Assembly: GCA_964387795.1 (NCBI GenBank)
Contig: CAYLYP010000071.1
Span: 1 to 16,539, forward strand
Length of the DNA stretch: 16,539 nt
Direction: 5' to 3'
From: an uncultured Bacteroidales bacterium
GTDB taxonomy: Bacteria > Bacteroidota > Bacteroidia > Bacteroidales > UBA7960
A program made the position numbers and the translations under genes. The number at the start of each line of letters is the position of its first letter. Positions within the stretch are counted from its first letter, which is position 1. Below the pieces are notes generated by a model. That model was not told the DNA's origin. It made no database searches and saw nothing but the letters and a program-made list of their open reading frames with translations. This document shows positions 1 through 11,190 of this stretch, piece after piece.

Positions 1-1001
1 GGAGTAAGGTCAAAGCCTCCGGGGCAAGCCCTGTGCCGTTTAAGCCCTGTGTTTCTTAAAAGAATGCTGTTGACATCAATACCATATTTCTTTCCAAGCC
101 TGCGTGCTTCGAAGAAGCCTTTTGTATATGACGAATAAAAATCTTTTAAGTCTGTATTGTTTGAAGCAAGCTTTTCATCAATTACCGGGTCAAAGCTTAA
201 GCGTTCAAGGCCGGGGTATTTGGAAGCAATCTCTAAAACCATTTCCTCTTGTCTGAATACATTAGCCGGGGTGATAATGGTATTCAGCGATGGCTTGATA
301 TTGGAGGCTAAAAGACTGATGATGTTTGTGCTTACCAATGAATGGTTTTTGCGTTGCAGGTTTTGAATATCTTCAAGGATATCAAACGAAATATTGGCTT
401 TGACATTATTGTGTTTTATCGTATCAATAATTTCTTTTGAAATCACTGAGCCATTGGAAGCAAAAGAGAAATGGATTGTAAACCCAAACTTATTGGCTTT
501 TTGGGATGCATAATCCAGCGCATGTTTCATGATATCCCAGGAGAGAAAAGGTTCGCCTCCGCCCCCAAAAGAGATATATAAATTACGGTTTGAAGTTCTT
601 TTTGGGTCAATAAAAAAATCAATGGTTTTTTCAAGCTTGAAAATACTCAGCTCCTCACCAGTGTGGCCTTTGGATGCATAACAATAGCTACATGAGAAAT
701 TGCATTTTGAATTGGGCAATATTGTAAGGGAGCAGGTTTCATGAGGCGATTGGATAATGTCATTTGGGTATTGATCGGGTATAGCTGTTAAAGCCTGCAC
801 TGCTTCAATGATGTCCCCATTATTGTTGATTTGAGGGGCATGAATAGCCTGGTGCAGGGTGTTTGCTTCTTCAGCAGATGCTATCAGCATATAGCCATTC
901 AGGGGTGCATAAATTAAATATGAGCTTGCTTCCTCCTGAGGTGTTGTATTTTCAAGGGGGATGAAAAAAATGTCGGAAAGTTCATTCTGAAAAGGTTTCA
1001 A
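1..1001 (-). CDS. Radical SAM/SPASM-domain peptide-maturase paralog, 3' partial (C-terminus lies beyond window position 1); starts with TTG at 999-1001; not in the supplied ORF track
   Basis: Manual minus-strand translation is open from 1001 to 1. It reads MKPFQNELSDIFFIPLENTTPQEEASSYLIYAPLNGYML...CNFSCSYCYASKGH...FGGGGEPFLSWD...ACPGGFDLTP. The CX3CX2C radical SAM motif and a GGEP motif are present. The protein is colinear with, and clearly paralogous to, the 1019..2389 protein (MKPFQNELSDIFFIP aligns with MKSSFVLENADIYPIP). The only in-frame ATG is at codon 36, so TTG at 999-1001 is the best start, 17 nt after the upstream gene's stop. Confidence 0.75.
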   Translation of the reverse strand, partial: MKPFQNELSDIFFIPLENTTPQEEASSYLIYAPLNGYMLIASAEEANTLHQAIHAPQINNNGDIIEAVQALTAIPDQYPNDIIQSPHETCSLTILPNSKCNFSCSYCYASKGHTGEELSIFKLEKTIDFFIDPKRTSNRNLYISFGGGGEPFLSWDIMKHALDYASQKANKFGFTIHFSFASNGSVISKEIIDTIKHNNVKANISFDILEDIQNLQRKNHSLVSTNIISLLASNIKPSLNTIITPANVFRQEEMVLEIASKYPGLERLSFDPVIDEKLASNNTDLKDFYSSYTKGFFEARRLGKKYGIDVNSILLRNTGLKRHRACPGGFDLT

Positions 1002-1018
1002 GGTGGCAATAGATTTGG

Positions 1019-2389
1019 TTATTCACAAATCCCTGTTGCACTCAACACGCTTTCTTTTAAGCTAAGCCCGGATTCTTTGAGATACTGTTGGTTTAATTTT
1101 TCAAGGATCATCCTTTTTGTAAAGTTCCTTGTAAACTCACATATTTCTTCAAGCGCCTCAGGCTGATAAACATATTTCCAGGCCATACAGCCACCCCCGC
1201 ATTGCCATTTTGCAAAACAGTATTTACATTTTTCTTTGCTGTAAACATTATCATCTGCAAGGCTTTGAAACTGGAGTTCATCTATGATGAGTTTATAATC
1301 CTTGTCAAAAAAACCATAAATGCTCTCTGAAAAGCCAGGATCGGCAGGAGCAGTGATACGTGTACACATACTAATCAAGCCATCAGGTGTGAGTGCAAAT
1401 TCACCGGGACAAAAGCGTTCAATCAGAAGGTTGAAATTGCGTGAAGCAGAGCATTCTACATTTTTACCATGTTCAAGACCTATCTTCCATGCTTTGAAAA
1501 AATGATTGATATATTGATTATAGAAATCCCTGAAATCCTGAGAGTTTTTAAATGACTCAGCATCCGTAACTGCCTCTGTCATAATGTCCGTTACCTTAGG
1601 ATAAACGGAAATCACTTCCTGGATCATTTGTTCCTGTAACAGGACGTTTTCAGGGGTAATGGTAGCCCTTAGCTTTGGAATTATCCCATTATCTATTAAT
1701 TGTTTGATGTTTCGGGAGACAATCTGGTAACTTCCCCTTTGCATGTTTTGGATGCTTTCAAGGATCTCGAATGAAACAGAAACCGTAACATTGTATTTTT
1801 TTAATACACTAATGATTTCATCATTAATGACAGAACCATTGGTGACAAGTGAAAAATCAGTCTTAAAGCCATGCGCATCAGCTAAAGCCTGCCCATATTC
1901 GAGGATGAATTTTACATGATCCCATGACAGCATAGGTTCTCCCCCTCCTAATATTGCAATAAAAAGCATTGGCGCCTTGATCCTTTTAGAATCTATAAAA
2001 TGCTCCAAGGTTTTTTTAAGGATTTCCTTATCAATGATTTTTCCTGATCTTCCCTGAGCCGAATAGCAATAGCTACATGAGAAATTACAAACATTATTGG
2101 GAAGTATGGCAAGACGGGTAAAATCGTTTGGAGATACGAGCCTGGCTGCTTTTTTCTCAGGGTCTTTCTCTGATAAAGCAATCATTGCCCCATGTATTTC
2201 TTCATCGGTGCAAGACCCTGGTGCTTTTATCCAATCTTCCATCTTTTGCACATAATCGGGGCTAACAATCATTGCATTGTCTGACCAGGGAGCATACATT
2301 AATACATAATCCTCTTCAGGGGCATCAAACCAACTGCCAACAGGGATTGGATAAATATCAGCATTTTCTAATACAAAGGAAGATTTCAT
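1019..2389 (-). CDS. Radical SAM enzyme with C-terminal SPASM domain; predicted peptide-modifying (RiPP) maturase carrying a ~100-aa N-terminal extension
   Basis: 456-aa ORF. CNFSCSYC (CX3CX2C) lies at residues 101-108. The C-terminal CKYCFAKWQCGGGC fits the SPASM CX2CX5CX3C signature, and CPGEF...MC upstream supplies further auxiliary-cluster cysteines. The N-terminal 100 residues precede the radical SAM core. No sulfatase is nearby, so this is not a sulfatase-maturase context. Confidence 0.85.
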   Translation of the reverse strand: MKSSFVLENADIYPIPVGSWFDAPEEDYVLMYAPWSDNAMIVSPDYVQKMEDWIKAPGSCTDEEIHGAMIALSEKDPEKKAARLVSPNDFTRLAILPNNVCNFSCSYCYSAQGRSGKIIDKEILKKTLEHFIDSKRIKAPMLFIAILGGGEPMLSWDHVKFILEYGQALADAHGFKTDFSLVTNGSVINDEIISVLKKYNVTVSVSFEILESIQNMQRGSYQIVSRNIKQLIDNGIIPKLRATITPENVLLQEQMIQEVISVYPKVTDIMTEAVTDAESFKNSQDFRDFYNQYINHFFKAWKIGLEHGKNVECSASRNFNLLIERFCPGEFALTPDGLISMCTRITAPADPGFSESIYGFFDKDYKLIIDELQFQSLADDNVYSKEKCKYCFAKWQCGGGCMAWKYVYQPEALEEICEFTRNFTKRMILEKLNQQYLKESGLSLKESVLSATGICE

Positions 2390-2415
2390 AAATGGGGACT
2401 TAAAATCATTAAAAA

Positions 2416-2459
2416 AATGGCACCACTGAATTCAATCTTTTGTATTCAATGGCACCACT
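2416..2459. repeat. Tandem direct repeats AATGGCACCACT (2416-2427 and 2448-2459; minus-strand reading AGTGGTGCCATT) in the precursor-maturase intergenic region, ending in a T7 run on the transcribed strand
   Basis: Seen directly. Two 12-nt identical copies 32 nt apart, each with an adjacent TTCAAT/GAATTC-containing sequence. Confidence 0.5.
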
Positions 2460-2473
2460 TAACTTTTCACCTT

Positions 2474-2631
2474 GGCGAAATTAGTTATTGCATTTGCAGC
2501 CACCACAATGGTCACAGCATCCATAACTGTTTTTCTTGGTGTCTTTCACTTTTACAACTTTTGTAAGCATAACTCCTTTTTTTAGTGGTAATGGTTTACT
2601 TAAATTGCGACTCAGTTGGGCGAAATTAGTT
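2474..2631. repeat. Direct repeat TTGG(G)CGAAATTAGTT (2471-2486 and 2615-2631) bracketing the Cys-peptide gene
   Basis: Seen directly. The downstream copy (relative to minus-strand transcription) covers the last two codons and stop of the peptide gene. The second copy sits about 50 nt upstream of the peptide ATG. Confidence 0.5.
2481..2570 (-). CDS. Small Cys-rich peptide, candidate RiPP precursor (29 aa: MLTKVVKVKDTKKNSYGCCDHCGGCKCNN)
   Basis: ATG at 2568-2570 and TAA at 2481-2483 on the minus strand. The ORF is too short for the supplied track. It has a Lys-rich N-terminal half and five Cys within the last 12 residues (CCDHCGGCKCNN). It sits 91 nt upstream of, and co-oriented with, the two tandem radical SAM/SPASM genes. 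A purine-rich AAAAAAAGGAG precedes the ATG. The nearest in-frame upstream codon that could matter is a TAG stop, with no alternative ATG. Confidence 0.6.
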   Translation of the reverse strand: MLTKVVKVKDTKKNSYGCCDHCGGCKCNN

Positions 2632-2708
2632 TCTATCCAATGAATACTCTGCTAAGGTAAAAAAATATTTAAATAACCAAAAAGAATTATAATAAAAATC
2701 ACTTTTTT

Positions 2709-2840
2709 ATGAAAGATGCACCTGCAACAGATGCTTTGCAGCAATATAGCCGTATCAGTAAATTAAGAAAGATTTTAATGGGTGTTGAAGAAGTAATAAC
2801 CTCCATTAAATGTCCAGTAAGACAGGTATTTGTGTTTTGA
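2709..2840 (+). CDS. Hypothetical 43-aa ORF (MKDAPATDALQQYSRISKLRKILMGVEEVITSIKCPVRQVFVF), divergent from the Cys-peptide/rSAM operon
   Basis: ATG-initiated ORF found by manual translation. It lies in the ~350-nt gap between the precursor gene and the permease gene. No recognizable motif; may be spurious. Confidence 0.2.
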   Translation: MKDAPATDALQQYSRISKLRKILMGVEEVITSIKCPVRQVFVF

Positions 2841-2893
2841 GTTGTTTCCTTAAGATACAATTGAGACAGTAGTTAAATACGATGCTATTTTTT

Positions 2894-2901
2894 CTAATTT
2901 T
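2894..2901 (+). promoter_or_regulatory. TAATTTTG, a match to the Bacteroidetes sigmaA -7 consensus TAnnTTTG, 20 nt upstream of the permease ATG
   Basis: Exact octamer match to TAnnTTTG. No well-spaced -33 TTTG was found. Confidence 0.3.
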
Positions 2902-2921
2902 GTATCCTTATCTTCAATCAG

Positions 2922-3851
2922 ATGGAAAAGAAGCCGGCAAACACGTTTGTGTATTATTCATTGCTTTGTGTTTTGATGCTTATATGGGGCTCGTCCTTTA
3001 TATTAATGAAAAAAGGCCTGATCAGCTTTACAGGCTTTCAATTAGGGGCATTGCGCATCAGTATAAGTTTTTTTGTTTTATTGCCTTTTGCGGTCATGCG
3101 AATATCAAAGGTATGGCATCAACACCGTAAGAGCCTGCTTTATTTCTTTCTGGCAGGATTAATAGGTAATGGGATCCCTGCATTTTTGTTTGCCATTGCC
3201 CAGACACGGATTGATAGTCTGTTGGCAGGGATTTTAAATTCTTTGACTCCTTTGTTTACAGTGATTGTAGGTGTTTCCCTTTTTGGGGCAAAGACCCGCT
3301 GGGCTAATGTAGCAGGTGTCCTTACGGGCCTGGTAGGGGCTATTGGTTTGATGGTTGCAAGCAGTGGGCAAAGTTTTTCAATCAATTCTGCTTATGGCTT
3401 GTTGATTGTAGCTGCCACAGTGTTATATGCATTTAACCTGAATATCATCAAACGCTTTTTATCTGCCTTTGATGCAATCACTATAACATCAGTGGCATTT
3501 TTAAGTTTTGCAATACCTTTTGTAATCTATTTATTTACAACTGATTTTATAAGCCGAATGGAAACAATGCCCCAGGCCTGGAGTAGCTTTGGATATATTG
3601 TACTGCTTTCGGTACTTGGAACAGCGATGGCAGTGATATTGCAAAACTGGCTTATCAAACAGACCTCGCCTTTGTTTGTTGCAAGTGTGACCTATCTGAT
3701 TCCTATTGTGGCAATATTTTGGGGCATTATTGATGGGGAACGTTTTGAAGCAGTTTATATCTTTTGGGTGGGTCTGATATTGGCTGGTGTCTATCTGGCT
3801 AACAGGCCTGATGGGGGATTTATTAAAAAACGGCTGGGGAAAAAAGTGTAG
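2922..3851 (+). CDS. DMT-superfamily (EamA-like) permease, about 10 predicted TM helices
   Basis: The 309-aa protein is hydrophobic throughout with two similar halves. This is the typical duplicated EamA architecture (e.g. LMLIWGSSFILMKKGL..., ...ILNSLTPLFTVIVGVSLFGAK...). Confidence 0.7.
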   Translation: MEKKPANTFVYYSLLCVLMLIWGSSFILMKKGLISFTGFQLGALRISISFFVLLPFAVMRISKVWHQHRKSLLYFFLAGLIGNGIPAFLFAIAQTRIDSLLAGILNSLTPLFTVIVGVSLFGAKTRWANVAGVLTGLVGAIGLMVASSGQSFSINSAYGLLIVAATVLYAFNLNIIKRFLSAFDAITITSVAFLSFAIPFVIYLFTTDFISRMETMPQAWSSFGYIVLLSVLGTAMAVILQNWLIKQTSPLFVASVTYLIPIVAIFWGIIDGERFEAVYIFWVGLILAGVYLANRPDGGFIKKRLGKKV

Positions 3852-4026
3852 TTGATCTTTTTGTTTTTCTGATATATACTTTCCCGGAGATTTCTTGAAA
3901 GGCTGATAATGAAGGAGAATAAGTGGTTTGGTGACTTGAAAGGCATAATAGTTCGGAGAGCAGGTGATGTATTCGTTTTTTTGGAATAATAATGGATAAA
4001 AAAGTTTGAATTACGAAAATAATTTT

Positions 4027-4034
4027 TAACTTTG
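4027..4034 (+). promoter_or_regulatory. TAACTTTG -7-type promoter element upstream of rplU (TTTG at 4005-4008 is a possible -33)
   Basis: Exact match to the TAnnTTTG consensus, 42 nt upstream of the rplU ATG. A TTTG lies 18 nt further upstream. Confidence 0.4.
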
Positions 4035-4076
4035 CAGCCCTAATTAAAAGAGTTCATATTTAAAACCTGGTAAACG

Positions 4077-4391
4077 ATGTATGCAATTGTTGACATAGCA
4101 GGCAGGCAATTCAAAGTAAGCAAAGACCAGAAGATTTTTGTTAACCGTTTGGACGCTGAAGAAGGCTCACAAGTGAGTTTTGATAAAGTGTATTTATTAG
4201 CAAACGAAAGCAAAATCGACGTAGGCGCCCCTGTTGTAACTGGTGCACAAGTTAAAGCCAAAGTGCTTTCGCACCCCAAAGCTGACAAAGTAACAATCTT
4301 CAAAAAGAAGAGAAGAAAGTCTTATCAAAAAAGGACTGGTCACCGTCAGCCTTTAACCCAGATTTTGATTGAAGAAATCATTTTGGGTTAA
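4077..4391 (+). CDS. rplU: 50S ribosomal protein L21
   Basis: MYAIVDIAGRQFKVSKDQKIFVNRLDAEEG... is a characteristic L21 N-terminus and length (104 aa). rpmA follows immediately. Confidence 0.95.
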   Translation: MYAIVDIAGRQFKVSKDQKIFVNRLDAEEGSQVSFDKVYLLANESKIDVGAPVVTGAQVKAKVLSHPKADKVTIFKKKRRKSYQKRTGHRQPLTQILIEEIILG

Positions 4392-4431
4392 TTAATGAAC
4401 CGTTTTTTGTTATAAAGAAAATTGAAATAAC

Positions 4432-4698
4432 ATGGCACACAAGAAAGGAGTCGGTAGTTCCAAGAACGGTAGGGAATCGCACAGTAAACGACTTGGTATT
4501 AAAATATTTGGCGGGCAGGCAGCCATTGCCGGAAATATTATTGTTAGACAAAGGGGTACCGTTCACAACCCTGGCGTTAATGTTGGTATCGGCAAAGACC
4601 ACACCTTATTTGCTACTTCAGATGGCATCGTGGTGTTCAGAAAAGGCAAAAACGATAAGTCTTTTGTTTCAGTGCTTCCAAAAGAAGCTCAGGCATAA
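4432..4698 (+). CDS. rpmA: 50S ribosomal protein L27
   Basis: [29 protein letters not shown]... is a canonical L27 N-terminus; 88 aa. Confidence 0.95.
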
Positions 4699-4733
4699 GA
4701 AATCCAACAAGCCTTCGGGCATTAAAAGCATAA

Positions 4734-4771
4734 AAATCTCCCGCCAGTTAAGGTTGGGAGATTTTTGTTTA
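4734..4771 (+). terminator. Rho-independent terminator after rpmA
   Basis: AAAATCTCCC-(gccagttaaggtt)-GGGAGATTTT stem-loop followed by TGTTT, about 35 nt after the rpmA stop. Confidence 0.55.
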
Positions 4772-4782
4772 AAAGAATTCCT

Positions 4783-4790
4783 AACTTTGT
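4783..4790 (+). promoter_or_regulatory. TAACTTTG -7-type element upstream of serS, the same octamer as upstream of rplU
   Basis: Exact TAnnTTTG match 50 nt upstream of the serS ATG. The nearest upstream TTTG (4765-4768) is only 14 nt away, which is short spacing. Confidence 0.3.
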
Positions 4791-4839
4791 AAAGGAAAAA
4801 TAAATTCATCATATTAATGTTCAATAAACCTGTTTTCAA

Positions 4840-6111
4840 ATGCTTCAAATTAGCTTAATCCGCGAGAACCCCCAAGAGGTGATTGAAAGGCTCAAAATAA
4901 AAAATTTTGATGCAGCCCCACTGGTAAATCAACTTCTTGAAACTGATAAGCAACGTCGTGAGACCCAAAAATCCCTTGATGACCTTTTGGCTGAATCCAA
5001 CCAACTGGCAAAAGAAATTGGTCAGCTTTTTAAATCGGGAAAGACTTCGGAAGCCAATGAGAAGAAAGAAAGAACATTTGTGCTAAAACAACAGGTTAAG
5101 GAATTGGAAGACAAGTTGAATGTGCTTAAGGAAAGCTTCGACAATGCCCTTGTGTTGCTTCCCAATATCCCCCATTCATCTGTTCCGGCTGGCAGGACAG
5201 CTGAAGATAATGAGATTGTCCTTCAGGATGGTAGTATTCCTGTATTATTCGAAGGTGCCGTGCCTCATTGGGAACTTACTTCAAAGTATGATATCATAGA
5301 TTTTGAACTGGGCACCAAGATTACCGGTGCAGGTTTCCCTGTTTATAAGGGCAAAGGGGCAAAGCTTCAACGCGCATTGATAAATTTCTTTTTGGATTGT
5401 GCCGAGCAGGCAGGATATACCGAGTATCAGCCCCCTTTGATGGTGAATGAGGCTTCGGCTTATGGTACAGGCCAATTACCGGATAAAGAAGGGCAGATGT
5501 ACCATGCAACAATTGATAACCTGTATTTGATTCCCACTGCTGAAGTTCCTGTAACAAATATTTTCCGTGATGTAATATTACGCGAACAGGATTTACCTGT
5601 TAAGAGCACCGCTTACTCAGCTTGTTTCAGGCGTGAAGCAGGTTCTTATGGAAAAGATGTCAGGGGACTTAACAGGCTCCACCAGTTTGATAAAGTAGAA
5701 ATTGTTCAGGTTACACGCCCTGATAAATCCTATGAGACCCTTGAAGTTATGAGGGATTATGTGGCAGGGATACTTCGCAAACTTGAACTTCCATTTCGCA
5801 TTGTAAGACTTTGTGGGGGTGATATGAGCTTCGCTTCCGCACTGACTTATGATATGGAGGTCTTTTCTGCTGCACAAAAACGTTGGCTTGAAGTGAGCTC
5901 TGTATCAAACTTTGAATCATTCCAATCAAACAGGATGAAGCTTCGCATTAAAGGCAATGATGGAAAAACAGAACTTGCACATACCCTTAATGGTAGTGCC
6001 CTGGCTTTGCCCCGTATCGTAGCCTCTATCCTTGAAAACAATCAAACCCCCGAAGGTATACGTATTCCTAAAGCATTGGTGAAATTCACCGGCTTTGAAT
6101 ACATCAATTAA
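4840..6111 (+). CDS. serS: Seryl-tRNA synthetase (class II)
   Basis: 423 aa. The N-terminal coiled-coil arm (MLQISLIRENPQEV...LKELEDKLN) and class-II catalytic motifs (...YSACFRREAGSYGKDVRGLNRLHQFDKVE..., ...GSALALPRIVASILENNQ) match SerRS. Confidence 0.95.
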   Translation: MLQISLIRENPQEVIERLKIKNFDAAPLVNQLLETDKQRRETQKSLDDLLAESNQLAKEIGQLFKSGKTSEANEKKERTFVLKQQVKELEDKLNVLKESFDNALVLLPNIPHSSVPAGRTAEDNEIVLQDGSIPVLFEGAVPHWELTSKYDIIDFELGTKITGAGFPVYKGKGAKLQRALINFFLDCAEQAGYTEYQPPLMVNEASAYGTGQLPDKEGQMYHATIDNLYLIPTAEVPVTNIFRDVILREQDLPVKSTAYSACFRREAGSYGKDVRGLNRLHQFDKVEIVQVTRPDKSYETLEVMRDYVAGILRKLELPFRIVRLCGGDMSFASALTYDMEVFSAAQKRWLEVSSVSNFESFQSNRMKLRIKGNDGKTELAHTLNGSALALPRIVASILENNQTPEGIRIPKALVKFTGFEYIN

Positions 6112-6120
6112 CATAAAAAT

Positions 6121-6178
6121 ACCCGTTGTGATTTTGATATCGCTTTCTATGACTCAAATCACAACGGGTTTGCTTTTA
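6121..6178 (+). terminator. Stem-loop terminator after serS
   Basis: ACCCGTTGTGATTT ... AAATCACAACGGGT is a 14-bp perfect stem with a 22-nt loop, followed by TTGCTTTTAT. It begins 10 nt after the serS stop. Confidence 0.55.
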
Positions 6179-6227
6179 TATAGTTTAAACATTCTTTTCC
6201 CTTTTGACTTTTTAACTCATTTGTAAT

Positions 6228-6791
6228 ATGAAAACATCCTTCTGCCTCGTTTCATCATCTATTGTGTTTGTTTCTTTTTTCTTATTTTCCTGTAGTTCCC
6301 AACTTGAAAAAACAGATGCACAAAGAGTTGATAGCCTTATTACTGTTTTGGATTCTGCCTATTTTTATTCCTCTCAGATTGATACCATTGAGGTAAATAA
6401 GGTCTTTGATGATTTTAAAATTCATCTTGATGATATGCAAAAGTATATGTTTGATAAACCGGATAAAGAAGAAGATGCTCAGCTTATTACCCGTTATAGC
6501 CAAATAAGAAAACCTTTAAGGGACTACAAGAAAAATGCAAAACAAATACGAAAAAGCATTGATGAACAAAAACAACAATTGCTTGCTCTGAAAAAAGAAA
6601 GACTTAAAGGCATTATCAATGATTCGGATTTTGTGATTTTTTTCCATCAGGAAAAAGATCTTGCTAAGCAAAATTTTTTAGAAGCACACAATTTACACCA
6701 AAGGACCAAAGAGTCATTAAATACCTATTATGAACTCAATGAACGGATGATTGAGTATATGGATAGTGTGATTCAAAATAGTAAACATTAA
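6228..6791 (+). CDS. Hypothetical lipoprotein (signal peptide plus lipobox Cys), K/E/D-rich
   Basis: The N-terminus MKTSFCLVSSSIVFVSFFLFSCSS has a hydrophobic signal followed by LFSC, a lipobox-like Cys. No recognizable catalytic motif. Confidence 0.55.
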   Translation: MKTSFCLVSSSIVFVSFFLFSCSSQLEKTDAQRVDSLITVLDSAYFYSSQIDTIEVNKVFDDFKIHLDDMQKYMFDKPDKEEDAQLITRYSQIRKPLRDYKKNAKQIRKSIDEQKQQLLALKKERLKGIINDSDFVIFFHQEKDLAKQNFLEAHNLHQRTKESLNTYYELNERMIEYMDSVIQNSKH

Positions 6792-6863
6792 TCACCGGGA
6801 AACGTTTGCGTTCATGGCAAAGTGATTTGTTTTTTTTCTTAATTTTTATTATTCTGAACGCCT

Positions 6864-8696
6864 ATGAAACCTGCTATTAAACAAATCCTGCTCTTTGGGG
6901 CCTTTATGCTTGGGCTTTATTGTAATATGCCGGGACAGAACCGCAGCACTGAAGAAATGCTTGCTGCGCAGTATCTTCAGAATGGCGAGTATGATAAAGC
7001 TGTTATTCTTTATGAAGAGCTTTTTGAAAAAAAACAGGATCCTGTTAATTATAATGCGCTCCTTAATTGTTATATTGGCCTTAATGATTATGAAAGGGCA
7101 GAACGCTTTATAAAGAAACTGATTAAACAAAACCCGGGTAACTATAGATATGAGGTTGACCTGGGTTGGGTATATGAACGTTCGGGCGATATAAATAAGG
7201 CCGAGAAACAATTCAAGGGTTTAATAAATAAATTGCCTGCCGAACCCAACAGGGTCATTGATTTATCAAATGCATTTCGCATCAGGGGCAAAATAGATTA
7301 CCAGTTGCAGACATTTCTAAAAGGACGTAGCCTGTTGAAAAACAGTATGCCTTTCAATGTTCAGATTGCCCAGATTTATGAGTTTCAGGGGAATTACCCT
7401 GAGATGATGAATGAGTATATTGATTTTGTTGATCTTTCCGGGAATAACATTGATATGGTGCAGGGCATTTTGCAAAGTGCTTTGCAAAATGACCCCGAAG
7501 GAGGAAAAGCTGAAGCTTTACGCCAGGTATTATTGTTTCGCACCCAAAAGAATGCATCCAATACATTATATGTTGAAATGCTTTTATGGCTTTCATTACA
7601 ACAAAAGGATTTTGAGACTGCACTCATTCAGGCTAAAGCTCTTGACAGGCGCCTTGGCAGGGATGGATATCTTGTTTTTTCTGTTGGTTCCCTTAGCCTT
7701 TCAAACCAGAATTTTGATGTTGCCATTAAGGCATTTAATATTATTGTTGAAAAGGGTATTGATAACCCTTATTACACCGATGGCCGCATTGGCTTACTTA
7801 ATGCCAATTTCCAAAAGTTAAACTCTTTATATGAGCGCGATAAAGCTGCATTTGTAAAACTAGAGGAAGATTACAATGCCACACTTGATGAACTTGGTTA
7901 TCATAGTGGCACGATTGGCCTTGTAAGGAATCTTGCAAGGATTAAAGCAGTTTATCTGGATAAGGTTGATGAATCTATTGAATTACTCAATAAGGCAATA
8001 AAACTACCCGGGGCTACACCGCGGATGCAGGCTGAATGTAAAATTGAACTGGCTGATGTTTACCTGATCCAGGGGGAGGTATGGGAAGCTGCACTTCTTT
8101 ATGGGCAGGTTGATAAAGCTTTCAAGGAAGACCCACTTGGTCATGAAGCAAAATTTAAAAATGCCCGTTTGTCTTTTTATATCGGTGAATTTGAATGGGC
8201 CAAAGCGCAACTGGATGTCCTTAAGGCTGCTACCAGTAAACTTATTGCAAATGATGCCATGGAACTCAGCCTCCTGATACAGGACCATACTTCATATAAT
8301 GGGGAACCCGAAGCTCTTAAAATATTTGCCAGGGCTGATATGCTTCAGGTCATGATGCTCTATGATAAAGCATTGGTAACCCTGGATTCCATCCCTGCCA
8401 AATATCCTTTTATTGACCTTAATGCCAATGTACTGTTCCGTAAGGCTGAGATTGCATTAAAAACTGGGGACTATAAAAAAGCTGACGAATGTCTTGAAGC
8501 TTTATTACAAAAACATCCTTCAAGTGTCCTGGCTGACCTGTCCTTATTTAAACGTGCCGAAATTAATGAAACACTTCTGGACAATAAGCCCTTGGCAATG
8601 GAACTCTATCAAAAACTTATGACTGATTTCCCGGGAAGTCTATATGTGACCCAGGCAAGGATCCGCTTCAGGAGCCTTAGGGGTGATGTATTATAA
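6864..8696 (+). CDS. Secreted tetratricopeptide-repeat (TPR) protein, function unknown
   Basis: An N-terminal signal peptide (MKPAIKQILLFGAFMLGLYC). The protein carries several repeated ~34-residue helical stretches with the W/LG/Y-x-Y...A...F...A...P pattern typical of TPR units (e.g. AAQYLQNGEYDKAVILYEELFEKKQDPVNYNALLNCYIGLNDYERAERFIKKLIKQNPGN). Confidence 0.65.
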   Translation: MKPAIKQILLFGAFMLGLYCNMPGQNRSTEEMLAAQYLQNGEYDKAVILYEELFEKKQDPVNYNALLNCYIGLNDYERAERFIKKLIKQNPGNYRYEVDLGWVYERSGDINKAEKQFKGLINKLPAEPNRVIDLSNAFRIRGKIDYQLQTFLKGRSLLKNSMPFNVQIAQIYEFQGNYPEMMNEYIDFVDLSGNNIDMVQGILQSALQNDPEGGKAEALRQVLLFRTQKNASNTLYVEMLLWLSLQQKDFETALIQAKALDRRLGRDGYLVFSVGSLSLSNQNFDVAIKAFNIIVEKGIDNPYYTDGRIGLLNANFQKLNSLYERDKAAFVKLEEDYNATLDELGYHSGTIGLVRNLARIKAVYLDKVDESIELLNKAIKLPGATPRMQAECKIELADVYLIQGEVWEAALLYGQVDKAFKEDPLGHEAKFKNARLSFYIGEFEWAKAQLDVLKAATSKLIANDAMELSLLIQDHTSYNGEPEALKIFARADMLQVMMLYDKALVTLDSIPAKYPFIDLNANVLFRKAEIALKTGDYKKADECLEALLQKHPSSVLADLSLFKRAEINETLLDNKPLAMELYQKLMTDFPGSLYVTQARIRFRSLRGDVL

Positions 8697-8786
8697 TTCT
8701 TGCCTATTGGAAATGATTTATTATCAAAGAAGTAAATCCATTAATCATTAACCTTATTTTAAATCCTTAAGGATACATCAATCTTT

Positions 8787-8807
8787 TCCATTTTCAGGTG
8801 AAAATGA
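8787..8807. terminator. Weak AT-rich hairpin (TCATTTTC-aggt-GAAAATGA) in the convergent gap between the TPR gene and the thioesterase gene; possible bidirectional terminator
   Basis: An 8-bp perfect inverted repeat with a 4-nt loop, sitting between two convergent stop codons. Low GC, so low confidence. Confidence 0.25.
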
Positions 8808-8866
8808 TATTATGCCAAAACTGATATGGTTTATGATGCGTGCTTAATTGAAATGCCAAAGTGGTG

Positions 8867-9616
8867 TCAGTCTTTTTCCCAATAACTTGCAAGGATACAT
8901 GATTCATTGTCCTGCTTATCAAGGATGCGATGTTTGCATAATAAACCGTTTTCATTCGTTTCCAATTGAACCTGAGATGTGATTTTCATCCCATAATGGT
9001 TTTCTTTTTTAAACATCACCTGGATACGCTTCAATGTATATGCCTCATGAACTTCAACAGGGATTGCTTCCATGGCCCATTCAACATATTTTACATTATT
9101 GACATGTTTGTTGAAATCAATATCGGAATACCTTACCTGAAATTCTTTTTGATATTGACATTCTTTAAATTCCGGTATTGGTTCAAAATCTTCTTTGGTG
9201 TCATTATTAAGGGGCAAGCCATAAGCCAGTGTGATCTCATCATGGATTTTTGTCGGTCTTTTGTTTTCTGTATTGACAAATAACCATGAAGAGTGGGCGG
9301 TGATTAATTCATTGTTCTGCTGATCAAAAACATGAAAATAACGGTATCCAAAGAACCTGAAAAAACCGGAAGGCTGGGTAACTACTTTAATGTTTTGAAG
9401 AAACTGAGGCGGATTATGCAATCGGATATCAAACTGGTAAAGCATCCAGGCAACTTTGTGTTTCGTATAATAATCAAGCCCGACCTGTTTTGATTCGCTT
9501 TGAAGCAATGCCATTTCTTCAAAAAAACAAAGCAGGGAACTGATGTTTAGCTTCTGGTCCTTGCCTGTTTCATAATAATGAATAGAATAGTCTTTCTCGA
9601 ATGAAGTGCCTCTCAT
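8867..9616 (-). CDS. Acyl-ACP thioesterase (hotdog-fold, FatA/B-like bacterial family)
   Basis: 249 aa. The N-terminus ...FEKDYSIHYYETGKDQKLNISSLLCFFEEMALLQSESKQVG... and the second half ...QVRYSDIDFNKHVNNVKYVEWAMEAIP... resemble the double hotdog acyl-ACP thioesterase family. Recognized by eye only. Confidence 0.6.
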   Translation of the reverse strand: MRGTSFEKDYSIHYYETGKDQKLNISSLLCFFEEMALLQSESKQVGLDYYTKHKVAWMLYQFDIRLHNPPQFLQNIKVVTQPSGFFRFFGYRYFHVFDQQNNELITAHSSWLFVNTENKRPTKIHDEITLAYGLPLNNDTKEDFEPIPEFKECQYQKEFQVRYSDIDFNKHVNNVKYVEWAMEAIPVEVHEAYTLKRIQVMFKKENHYGMKITSQVQLETNENGLLCKHRILDKQDNESCILASYWEKD

Positions 9617-9795
9617 AGAACATGATTTAATCGAACAAATATGGATAAAAAAAACGAGGATGACATATAATTTCTGATTTTTTGGCGAATAAACATTAAG
9701 GAATTCATGCTTTTCATTTGTTAAGGATATAATCCAATATGGAAATAATTCAACTTGTATCAGGGTGATTATTTCGCTGGTAATATTTAAAGGCT

Positions 9796-9803
9796 TACAT
9801 TTG
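9796..9803 (+). promoter_or_regulatory. TACATTTG -7-type element about 70 nt upstream of rsmA
   Basis: Exact TAnnTTTG match. No clear -33 TTTG. Confidence 0.25.
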
Positions 9804-10668: not shown

Positions 10669-11190
10669 ATGAGAACCTTAATATTCGTTTTTTTGTTAAT
10701 TTGTACCCTTACGGGGATACATGCCCAGGATGTTAACCGGGTTATCAGGGATGAAACGATAGATAAAGATGTTTTGTATGGCCTGTGTAATGTGGAAGGG
10801 TTAAAAGGTGAAGTGTTTGGTGAAGCTTTTCAGAGCGAATACCAGTCCTACGAGCCCCAATCGGATGTTTTGCTCAGGTTAAGGATTATACCTGATATTG
10901 ATGAACTGGAAGTAATCATTGTTTTTGGGCCATGGTGCGGTGATTCAAAGCGTGAAGTCCCGAGGTTTGTCAAACTGGCAGAACAGATAGGTATTCAGGA
11001 ATCTCAGATAAAAATGTATGCCACAAACAGGGAGAAGAAATGTGGGGAAGCTATCATCGACAGCTTGTTAACCGAATTGGTGCCAACATTTTATGTTTAT
11101 AGGGGAGGGAAGTTCATTGGAAGCATTGTAGAGTTCCCCATCAACAGTCTGGAAGAAGATCTATTGGCTATTTTGTTAAAAGATGAATAG
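10669..11190 (+). CDS. Secreted thioredoxin-fold protein with a CxxS (WCGDS) variant active site
   Basis: Signal peptide MRTLIFVFLLICTLTGIHAQ. ...IVFGPWCGDSKREVPRFVKLA... looks like a thioredoxin-fold active-site region with Ser in place of the second Cys. The start lies 12 nt after the rsmA stop. Confidence 0.5.
   Translation: MRTLIFVFLLICTLTGIHAQDVNRVIRDETIDKDVLYGLCNVEGLKGEVFGEAFQSEYQSYEPQSDVLLRLRIIPDIDELEVIIVFGPWCGDSKREVPRFVKLAEQIGIQESQIKMYATNREKKCGEAIIDSLLTELVPTFYVYRGGKFIGSIVEFPINSLEEDLLAILLKDE

Follow-up and report, generated by a model that had tools for sequence, protein, structure and literature searches.

A putative multi-maturase, RiPP-type operon behind a five-cysteine peptide in uncultured Bacteroidales

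The left end of a 16,539-nucleotide stretch of DNA from an uncultured Bacteroidales bacterium (contig CAYLYP010000071.1 of assembly GCA_964387795.1; the whole stretch is called the window below) holds three co-oriented minus-strand genes, which code for a 29-amino-acid peptide, for a radical S-adenosylmethionine (SAM) enzyme with a SPASM domain, called R1 here, and for the beginning of a paralogous enzyme, R2, that runs into the window edge (Table 1). A sequence-only reading of the window had placed the genes at just these positions, with gaps of 91 nt between peptide gene and R1 and 17 nt between R1 and R2, and had taken them for a compact unit of the kind that produces peptides synthesized ribosomally and modified post-translationally (RiPPs), with a Cys-rich precursor and radical SAM/SPASM enzymes carrying N-terminal extensions. 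Our data bear this description out: translation of the open reading frame (ORF) gives a peptide with five Cys within its last 12 residues, and the best matches of the enzymes are all peptide maturases. The unit appears to be the start of a conserved multi-maturase operon of gut and digester Bacteroidales which is apparently undescribed, and we consider it probable that the window shows the 5' end of a new, ranthipeptide-like RiPP-type operon.

Table 1. Features at the left end of the window (positions of the forward strand)
Feature	Position	Strand	Remarks
R2, paralogous radical SAM/SPASM maturase, first 333 codons	1..1001	-	window edge cuts the gene
R1, radical SAM/SPASM peptide maturase, 456 aa	1019..2389	-	Radical_SAM and SPASM models
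Hairpin, terminator/attenuator-like	2411..2460	-	between precursor gene and R1
Precursor peptide gene, 29 aa	2481..2570	-	ORF encodes MLTKVVKVKDTKKNSYGCCDHCGGCKCNN
Precursor parts: leader MLTKVVKVKDTKKNSYG, core CCDHCGGCKCNN	inside 2481..2570	-	
Intergenic region	2571..2921	.	from precursor gene to divergent DMT/EamA gene; presumed operon promoter region

The peptide gene and its operon

The same DNA was recovered through an exact-protein look-up on a 15.6-kb contig (L001, from Logan SRR5891507), whose DNA is also present in the NCBI assembly GCA_012514955.1, a Bacteroidales metagenome-assembled genome (MAG). Over their overlap the contig and the window are identical (2823/2823 positions). L001 carries the operon beyond the window edge in the order peptide, R1, R2, R3, R4, X184, R5 and a short-chain dehydrogenase (SDR), so the two tandem paralogs of the sequence-only reading turn out to be an artefact of that edge: there are five, accompanied by X184 and the SDR. 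The R2 frame, open in the window from a TTG start at 1001 to base 2 (minus strand), belongs to a full gene at 1823-3127 of L001. The products of R1 to R4 are 456, 434, 452 and 456 aa long, those of X184, R5 and the SDR gene 184, 451 and 241 aa, and the intergenic gaps of the operon on L001 do not exceed 26 nt where the genes do not overlap.

The peptide is strongly conserved. In 10 window-type loci it has 29 aa and a core of the form CCD[HQ]CGGC[KQR]CNN, with the Cys spaced as CC-x2-C-x2-C-x-C. Among these orthologous loci the proportion of synonymous differences (pS) is 0.69 and that of nonsynonymous differences (pN) 0.13, and DNA identity reaches 78% in the ORF against ∼30% in the 90-nt flanks, so the ORF can hardly have arisen by chance; judged from these comparisons it is a genuine gene under strong purifying selection. 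Whether the small ORF is kept in orthologous loci had been raised earlier as a point to check, and it is.

A conserved peptide of 28-34 aa is found upstream of radical SAM arrays not only in Bacteroidales but also in Akkermansia, Victivallales and Lentisphaeria. In loci with a CCD-type core the small ORF lies directly upstream of the array (within it in Lentimicrobium), and the peptides follow the pattern M(L/I)T-x-(V/I)-x-x-V ... CC(D/E), with further Cys after it. The core of L049, a Lentisphaeria locus, has CCE in place of CCD, so that the carboxylate is retained. Search in the reverse direction, in which metagenome contigs were scanned with the back-translated peptide core, gave 19 matches to the core-DNA pattern, and an intact 29-aa peptide is encoded in 19/19. 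A radical SAM enzyme of the family follows immediately downstream on the same strand in all 18 testable cases (the contig of the 19th match ends on its downstream side). None of the NCBIfam peptide models, SCIFF included, was matched by the 29-aa precursor in the NCBIfam scan.

An AGGAG sequence resembling a Shine-Dalgarno site stands at 2573-2577 (minus strand), 3 nt upstream of the precursor ATG. It is missing upstream of nearly all orthologous peptides, and GGAG recurs in L039 and L049. Bacteroidales are generally considered independent of such sites.

The space between the precursor gene and R1 is occupied by a strong hairpin of 20 pairs, made of a 17-pair stem and 3 capping pairs and running out into seven U. 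The RNA of the surrounding 101 nt (2385-2485, minus strand) folds at -28.5 kcal/mol (z = -4.57), and none of 200 shuffled sequences folds as well. In most of the 28 related loci that we folded, a strong hairpin is found at the same position, its sequence not being conserved. In form it resembles an intrinsic terminator or attenuator; a simple terminator scan passed over it, as its stem and loop are of a form beyond the rules of that scan. Hairpins after the precursor gene are usual in bacteriocin and RiPP operons, where they give an excess of precursor transcript. We infer the same role at this locus, where the hairpin would keep the precursor mRNA in excess over the enzyme mRNA.

The radical SAM/SPASM paralogs and X184

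R1 to R5 share 36-40% pairwise identity (39.5% between R1 and R2), and the N-terminus of R2 aligns with the other paralogs from residue 1. The Pfam model Radical_SAM (PF04055) matches R1 with 59.8 and R2 with 43.1 bits, and the SPASM model TIGR04085, which the sequence-only reading had proposed to run, matches the C-terminal 147 residues of R1 with 35.4 bits, above its cutoff of 27. The CNFSCSYC (CX3CX2C) motif, GGGEP and the seven Cys of the SPASM motif (CX9-15GX4C ... CX2CX5CX3C ... C) are retained in 5/5 paralogs; in R1, C101, C105 and C108 together with the seven SPASM Cys are invariant across 21 orthologs. Because all of these are kept, no paralog looks dead and none is a pseudo-radical SAM protein. 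A dead scaffold paralog was accordingly rejected, and the earlier suggestion of one active enzyme paired with one scaffold is disfavoured, since all five keep every cluster-binding Cys.

The best NCBIfam matches of all five paralogs are peptide maturases, namely PapB, SCIFF, nif11 and QhpD (nif11 and PapB in the case of R2). The PapB model (NF047865) scores 84-119 bits across R1-R5 against a cutoff of 340, the SCIFF maturase model (TIGR03974) 66-94 bits against 425, and the QhpD model (TIGR03906), which is among the top matches, aligns most fully with R3 (92.8 bits, residues 11-404, cutoff 453). No curated NCBIfam peptide-maturase family is reached at cutoff by any of R1-R5. Fold comparison leads to the same group of enzymes: the AlphaFold2 model of R1 (predicted local distance difference test, pLDDT, 87.5) has its best PDB matches by Foldseek in CteB (5WHY/5WGG, E ∼1e-14, 450-480 aligned columns), followed by TigE, the anaerobic sulfatase-maturating enzyme (anSME), ChlB and SuiB. 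A sequence profile of R1 orthologs likewise matches CteB (E = 1.2e-25), aligned from R1 residue 68 only.

That anSME is among the structural matches and that no curated maturase cutoff is reached might be taken to mean that the enzymes are anSME-like or otherwise outside RiPP biosynthesis, the small ORF being incidental. We regard this as very improbable. The anSME model (TIGR03942) reaches 43-57 bits, where its cutoff is 349, and stays below PapB, SCIFF and nif11 in every paralog; anSME lacks the N-terminal extension, and its Foldseek alignment covers ∼380 columns, compared with those 450-480 for CteB. Strong purifying selection acts on the small ORF, which was always found with the array, whether the search set out from the enzymes or from the peptide. 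The sequence-only reading had named a best match to anSME with a sulfatase just outside the window as grounds for abandoning the RiPP assignment, and this refutation fails, as no sulfatase was found in the 11.8 kb of L001.

The N-terminal domain of R1 comprises ∼95 aa and is acidic, and its residues 13-73 are modelled as three strands followed by helices (pLDDT ∼90). Across the five paralogs these domains have a net charge of -7 to -11, and the leader of the peptide is Lys-rich. CteB, the closest solved structure to R1, carries a RiPP recognition element (RRE). From sequence and model, a leader-binding role of the RRE type appears likely for the N-terminal domains.

To see how the paralogs are related, consider the 58 loci with R1 relatives that a scan of one genome per species returned, with array sizes taken from a hidden Markov model search of these loci. 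Bacteroidales genera (Lentimicrobium, Dysgonomonas, Odoribacter, Bacteroides, Prevotellaceae, Tannerella, Cryptobacteroides) have 4-7 tandem paralogs, Akkermansia 2-3, a Victivallales MAG 7 and a Lentisphaeria MAG 4; elsewhere single copies are found. For each array gene in L004, L007-L013 and L029 the best match is the window paralog at the same position, and in distance clustering of 161 radical SAM proteins each array position forms a clade of its own over 8-11 loci. Positional clades are also seen in a second cluster type and in an Akkermansia type, both described below. The paralogs are thus old, separate orthologous lineages, kept in a fixed gene order across genera and not redundant; the synteny of tandem radical SAM genes that had been suggested for inspection exists, with conserved order across Bacteroidales genera. 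Natural fusions of two complete maturases of the family also occur (P0009, P0012, P0034, P0046, P0050, P0058 and P0065). They have 640-790 aa, and in several of them one half is without the N-terminal extension.

X184 is co-inherited with the radical SAM/peptide system. Iterative search found it in all window-type loci, in the minimal loci L014-L017 and in L021, where it comes after the only radical SAM gene, and fused to a radical SAM protein in L004 (R4-X184), L009 (X184-R5), L039 and L049. Homologs of 640-790 aa were considered as further fusions of this kind and rejected, being the double radical SAM proteins just mentioned. X184 has no match in Pfam or NCBIfam, and Foldseek against the PDB returned nothing significant. 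The protein is an orphan, weakly GNAT-like, and rare: a HMMER scan of 1.84 billion clustered representatives gave only 27 matches at E < 1e-3.

A proposed pathway, its precedents and its rivals

To our knowledge, a single maturase, seldom a pair, serves each radical SAM-modified peptide. The arrays described here place four to seven old, non-redundant radical SAM/SPASM paralogs, in fixed order, behind one 12-residue core. The ranthipeptide and SCIFF maturases (CteB, PapB, SCIFF), which give the best fold and sequence matches, share with R1-R5 the peptide-binding-type N-terminal domain, the radical SAM core and the 7-Cys SPASM domain, and their substrates are also Cys-rich precursors. They come one per precursor, however, whereas here five to seven paralogs share one precursor of 29 aa with a core of 12 aa, and the cluster adds X184 and the SDR. 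QhpD is a radical SAM/SPASM enzyme that joins Cys to Asp/Glu by several thioethers within a small polypeptide rich in Cys, but that polypeptide is an enzyme subunit, in contrast to the free 29-aa peptide found here, and no qhp genes lie nearby.

The thuricin CD and ruminococcin C clusters, too, have more than one radical SAM/SPASM maturase, TrnC/TrnD and RumMC1/RumMC2 respectively (PMC12093266, PMC8188230). These are pairs of enzymes from Firmicutes which act on several or two-component precursors with at least 30 core residues, compared with five old non-redundant paralogs and a single 12-residue core in our case. Sactisynthase models, where listed, score 37-49 bits against 625 (StsB) and 31.6-37.4 against 720 (RumMC). 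The CXXX-repeat and GG-Bacteroidales systems (TIGR04148-04150 for the latter) come from the same phylum and likewise combine radical SAM enzymes with short Cys-containing peptides, and the sequence-only reading had linked the cluster to the CXXX-repeat systems of Haft and Basu. This link does not hold. The CXXX-repeat model TIGR04115 scores 34-46 bits against 350 and the GG-Bacteroidales model TIGR04148, listed for 3/5 paralogs, 32-40 against 300, and the cluster has no CXXX repeat, GG leader, pseudo-radical SAM protein or PCAT exporter. Both assignments, like that to anSME, were rejected on scores and context.

We think it very probable that R1-R5 modify this peptide. In the pathway that we propose, the basic, β-strand-prone leader (MLTKVVKVK) would dock on the acidic N-terminal domain of each paralog. 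Each enzyme would cleave SAM at its CX3CX2C cluster and take a hydrogen from the 12-residue core, and the SPASM clusters would be used to couple Cys sulfur to carbon, giving thioethers of the CteB/PapB/QhpD type. The acidic residue that is invariant in CC(D/E) probably takes part and is a likely acceptor, since PapB forms Cys-to-Asp or Cys-to-Glu links (PMC9413430), and QhpD also joins Cys to Asp/Glu. As the paralogs are not redundant, each would presumably make a link of its own or carry out its own kind of modification. X184 would be an obligate partner, either an acyl/aminoacyl transferase or a peptide-handling subunit, and the SDR would reduce or oxidise one modified position. Removal of the leader could fall to the M42 aminopeptidase in sister clusters and to an unlinked peptidase in this genome. 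The end product, ∼12 residues long, would be compact and densely cross-linked. By analogy with the characterised relatives, thioether links may be the main chemistry, which we offer as a serious possibility somewhat short of a probable outcome.

Several observations weigh against this picture. The maturase relatives on which the thioether analogy draws score 84-119 bits against cutoffs that span 340-519 bits for the best-matching curated models. Residues 1-95 of R1 match nothing in Pfam or NCBIfam and no RRE family by sequence. No exporter, leader protease or immunity gene was found on L001, where the sequence-only reading had expected a protease or exporter beyond the left edge, and none that is conserved was found across the related loci. 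All close relatives come from uncultured MAGs; a look-up of cluster members found no cultured host for window-type clusters. Finally, an identical core occurs with 4 (L013), 5 or 6 (L005) radical SAM enzymes, and cores with 5 Cys occur with 1 to 7. Because the number of enzymes does not follow the core, a scheme of one enzyme per Cys is unlikely and was rejected; more probably the paralogs differ in the site and kind of reaction. A three-Cys core (ACCDCFSK, L056) is found with two radical SAM enzymes and a B12-binding radical SAM protein.

This variation in enzyme number with an unchanged core would also suit a narrower scheme, by which only R1, together with X184, modifies the peptide, and R2-R5 serve precursors elsewhere or are partly redundant spares. 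It is in keeping with such a scheme that peptide, one R1-like enzyme and X184 stand alone in the minimal loci L014-L017, and that precursor copies roughly match the number of radical SAM enzymes in the Akkermansia loci L042, L051 and L055. We nevertheless judge it improbable. In window-type loci each array has a single precursor, and R2-R5 have 1:1 orthologs kept in fixed order across genera, which argues for non-redundant roles in one pathway. Each paralog keeps an N-terminal domain of the leader-binding type, similarly acidic in all five; translational coupling joins the genes into one operon headed by the single precursor; and the core of the minimal systems (CCDHACGCDDR) departs from that of the five-enzyme systems after CCD.

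Another alternative concerns the product, which might be a peptide-derived cofactor or metal-binding prosthetic molecule, after the logic of pyrroloquinoline quinone (PQQ), mycofactocin or methanobactin, and not a secreted bioactive peptide. The radical SAM enzymes and the SDR would then turn the CCD core into a small compound, redox-active or metal-binding, for intracellular use. Mycofactocin and PQQ clusters resemble ours in their short, highly conserved precursor, radical SAM/SPASM enzyme, peptidase or oxidoreductase genes and lack of an exporter. The core described above is almost invariant across genera in which R1 is only ∼50% identical, a pattern typical of cofactor precursors and not of bacteriocins; exporter, immunity gene and leader protease are not conserved; cluster and flanks have the same GC content (0.40), in a setting of chromosomal housekeeping genes. 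The SDR is conserved beside the array (directly after it in 11 loci), and the M42 and S9 peptidases of sister clusters could release a small fragment. On the other hand, the genes linked to the cluster include no enzyme that might depend on such a cofactor, Akkermansia loci with 2-3 diverging precursor copies look more like natural-product diversification, and the nearest characterised enzymes make cross-linked peptides. Unlike mycofactocin and PQQ clusters, ours has no stand-alone chaperone of the MftB/PqqD type, the chemistry of a five-Cys core is unrelated, and the MftC and PqqE models score 34-58 bits (mycofactocin cutoff 265). Taken together, we find a cofactor unlikely. The joint reading, in which five enzymes, X184 and the SDR make a new kind of cofactor or metal-binding compound that anaerobic Bacteroidales of the gut and, in a variant, Akkermansia and Lentisphaerae would use, several SPASM paralogs acting beyond simple thioethers, also seems to us rather doubtful.

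Returning to the multi-maturase RiPP operon, what is new here is the unusually large, fixed set of paralogous maturases and the new partner protein, placed within the known frame of radical SAM/SPASM RiPPs. The cluster had been called undescribed, and we found no curated model or paper that describes it: it is not described in a mining paper on Bacteroidales RiPPs (PMC10352776), a review of radical SAM RiPPs of the human microbiome (PMC9389541) or a compendium of radical SAM RiPPs (PMC10288494), and searches by phrase and by core-sequence string gave no description in literature outside subscription journals, which is the sense in which we use the word. The system is widespread in uncultured Bacteroidales of guts and digesters, and Akkermansia, Victivallales and Lentisphaeria have related forms. 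Its closely related SPASM enzymes, which would have to act on one small substrate at different sites or by different reactions, form a natural series for studies of specificity in this class, and the system suggests that gut anaerobes make a peptide product or cofactor so far unseen.

Genomic setting and related cluster types

Downstream of the SDR on L001 lie genes for a PMT_2/TPR membrane protein and a PcrB-like protein. The former was rejected as a part of the system, other loci being without it, and the latter is not common to the related loci. An M42 aminopeptidase and a class I methyltransferase often follow the SDR in window-type loci; the window contig has neither. On the opposite side of the peptide gene, a divergent DMT/EamA transporter gene is followed by rplU, rpmA, serS, rsmA and meaB. 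The transporter was rejected as exporter of the system, since the surroundings of the 58 related loci contain no homolog of it. In the intergenic region a sigma-70-like consensus match at 2713-2686 (minus strand) is no better than matches in shuffled sequence, and the Bacteroidetes-type TAnnTTTG motif was not found upstream of the peptide at the window locus. Rfam and tRNA scans of the window returned nothing. Three window ORFs without an NCBIfam match at E <= 1e-5 lie among the housekeeping genes, at 6228-6791 (plus strand), 8867-9616 (minus) and 10669-11190 (plus), and code for 187, 249 and 173 aa.

Just upstream of arrays of two different cluster types (L011/L012 ∼2487-9062; L033, L043, L052), genes recur for a ThiF/E1-like protein of 411-445 aa and for a membrane protein ending in an SH3 domain, and a protein of 140-150 aa accompanies the pair in L011, L012 and L033.

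The second cluster type (L018, L020, L022-L026, L030, L031, L034, L037) has the core CCDCFGGGCRCN(D/H) and comprises five or six radical SAM/SPASM paralogs, an M42 aminopeptidase, a B12-binding radical SAM protein and a formyltransferase-N-domain protein, which mostly has ∼160 aa but is longer in a few loci. No X184 was detected in loci of this type. Akkermansia MAG loci (L038, L040, L042, L051, L053, L055) have 1-3 diverging precursors, 2-3 radical SAM enzymes and a B12-binding radical SAM protein. With L039 (Victivallales), where seven radical SAM enzymes are found, and L049 (Lentisphaeria), they extend the peptide family defined by its leader and the CC(D/E) motif beyond Bacteroidota. In L041, another Akkermansia MAG, two adjacent small ORFs at ∼9537-9801 lie upstream of a single radical SAM gene of the family; their Cys-rich core (e.g. 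...GTCDCNCNYGCGNVWDPPCERYTRMD) differs from the CC(D/E) type, and they may be another precursor subtype.

In a third type, two SPASM radical SAM enzymes are combined with three MiaB-like methylthiotransferases (UPF0004 plus radical SAM), an M42 peptidase, an S9 peptidase and an uncharacterised protein of ∼295 aa. Its 39-aa precursor, conserved in most loci, reads MK.INFQVV...NFSE(S/N)GPCDMCWGDLSL. Besides L032, L033, L044, L046, L048, L050, L052, L054, L058 and L059, this type is found in Bacteroides congonensis Marseille-P3132 (L043, ∼5840-5960) and Mediterranea massiliensis Marseille-P2645 (L047, ∼5875-5994). Its presence in cultured type strains brings it within experimental reach.

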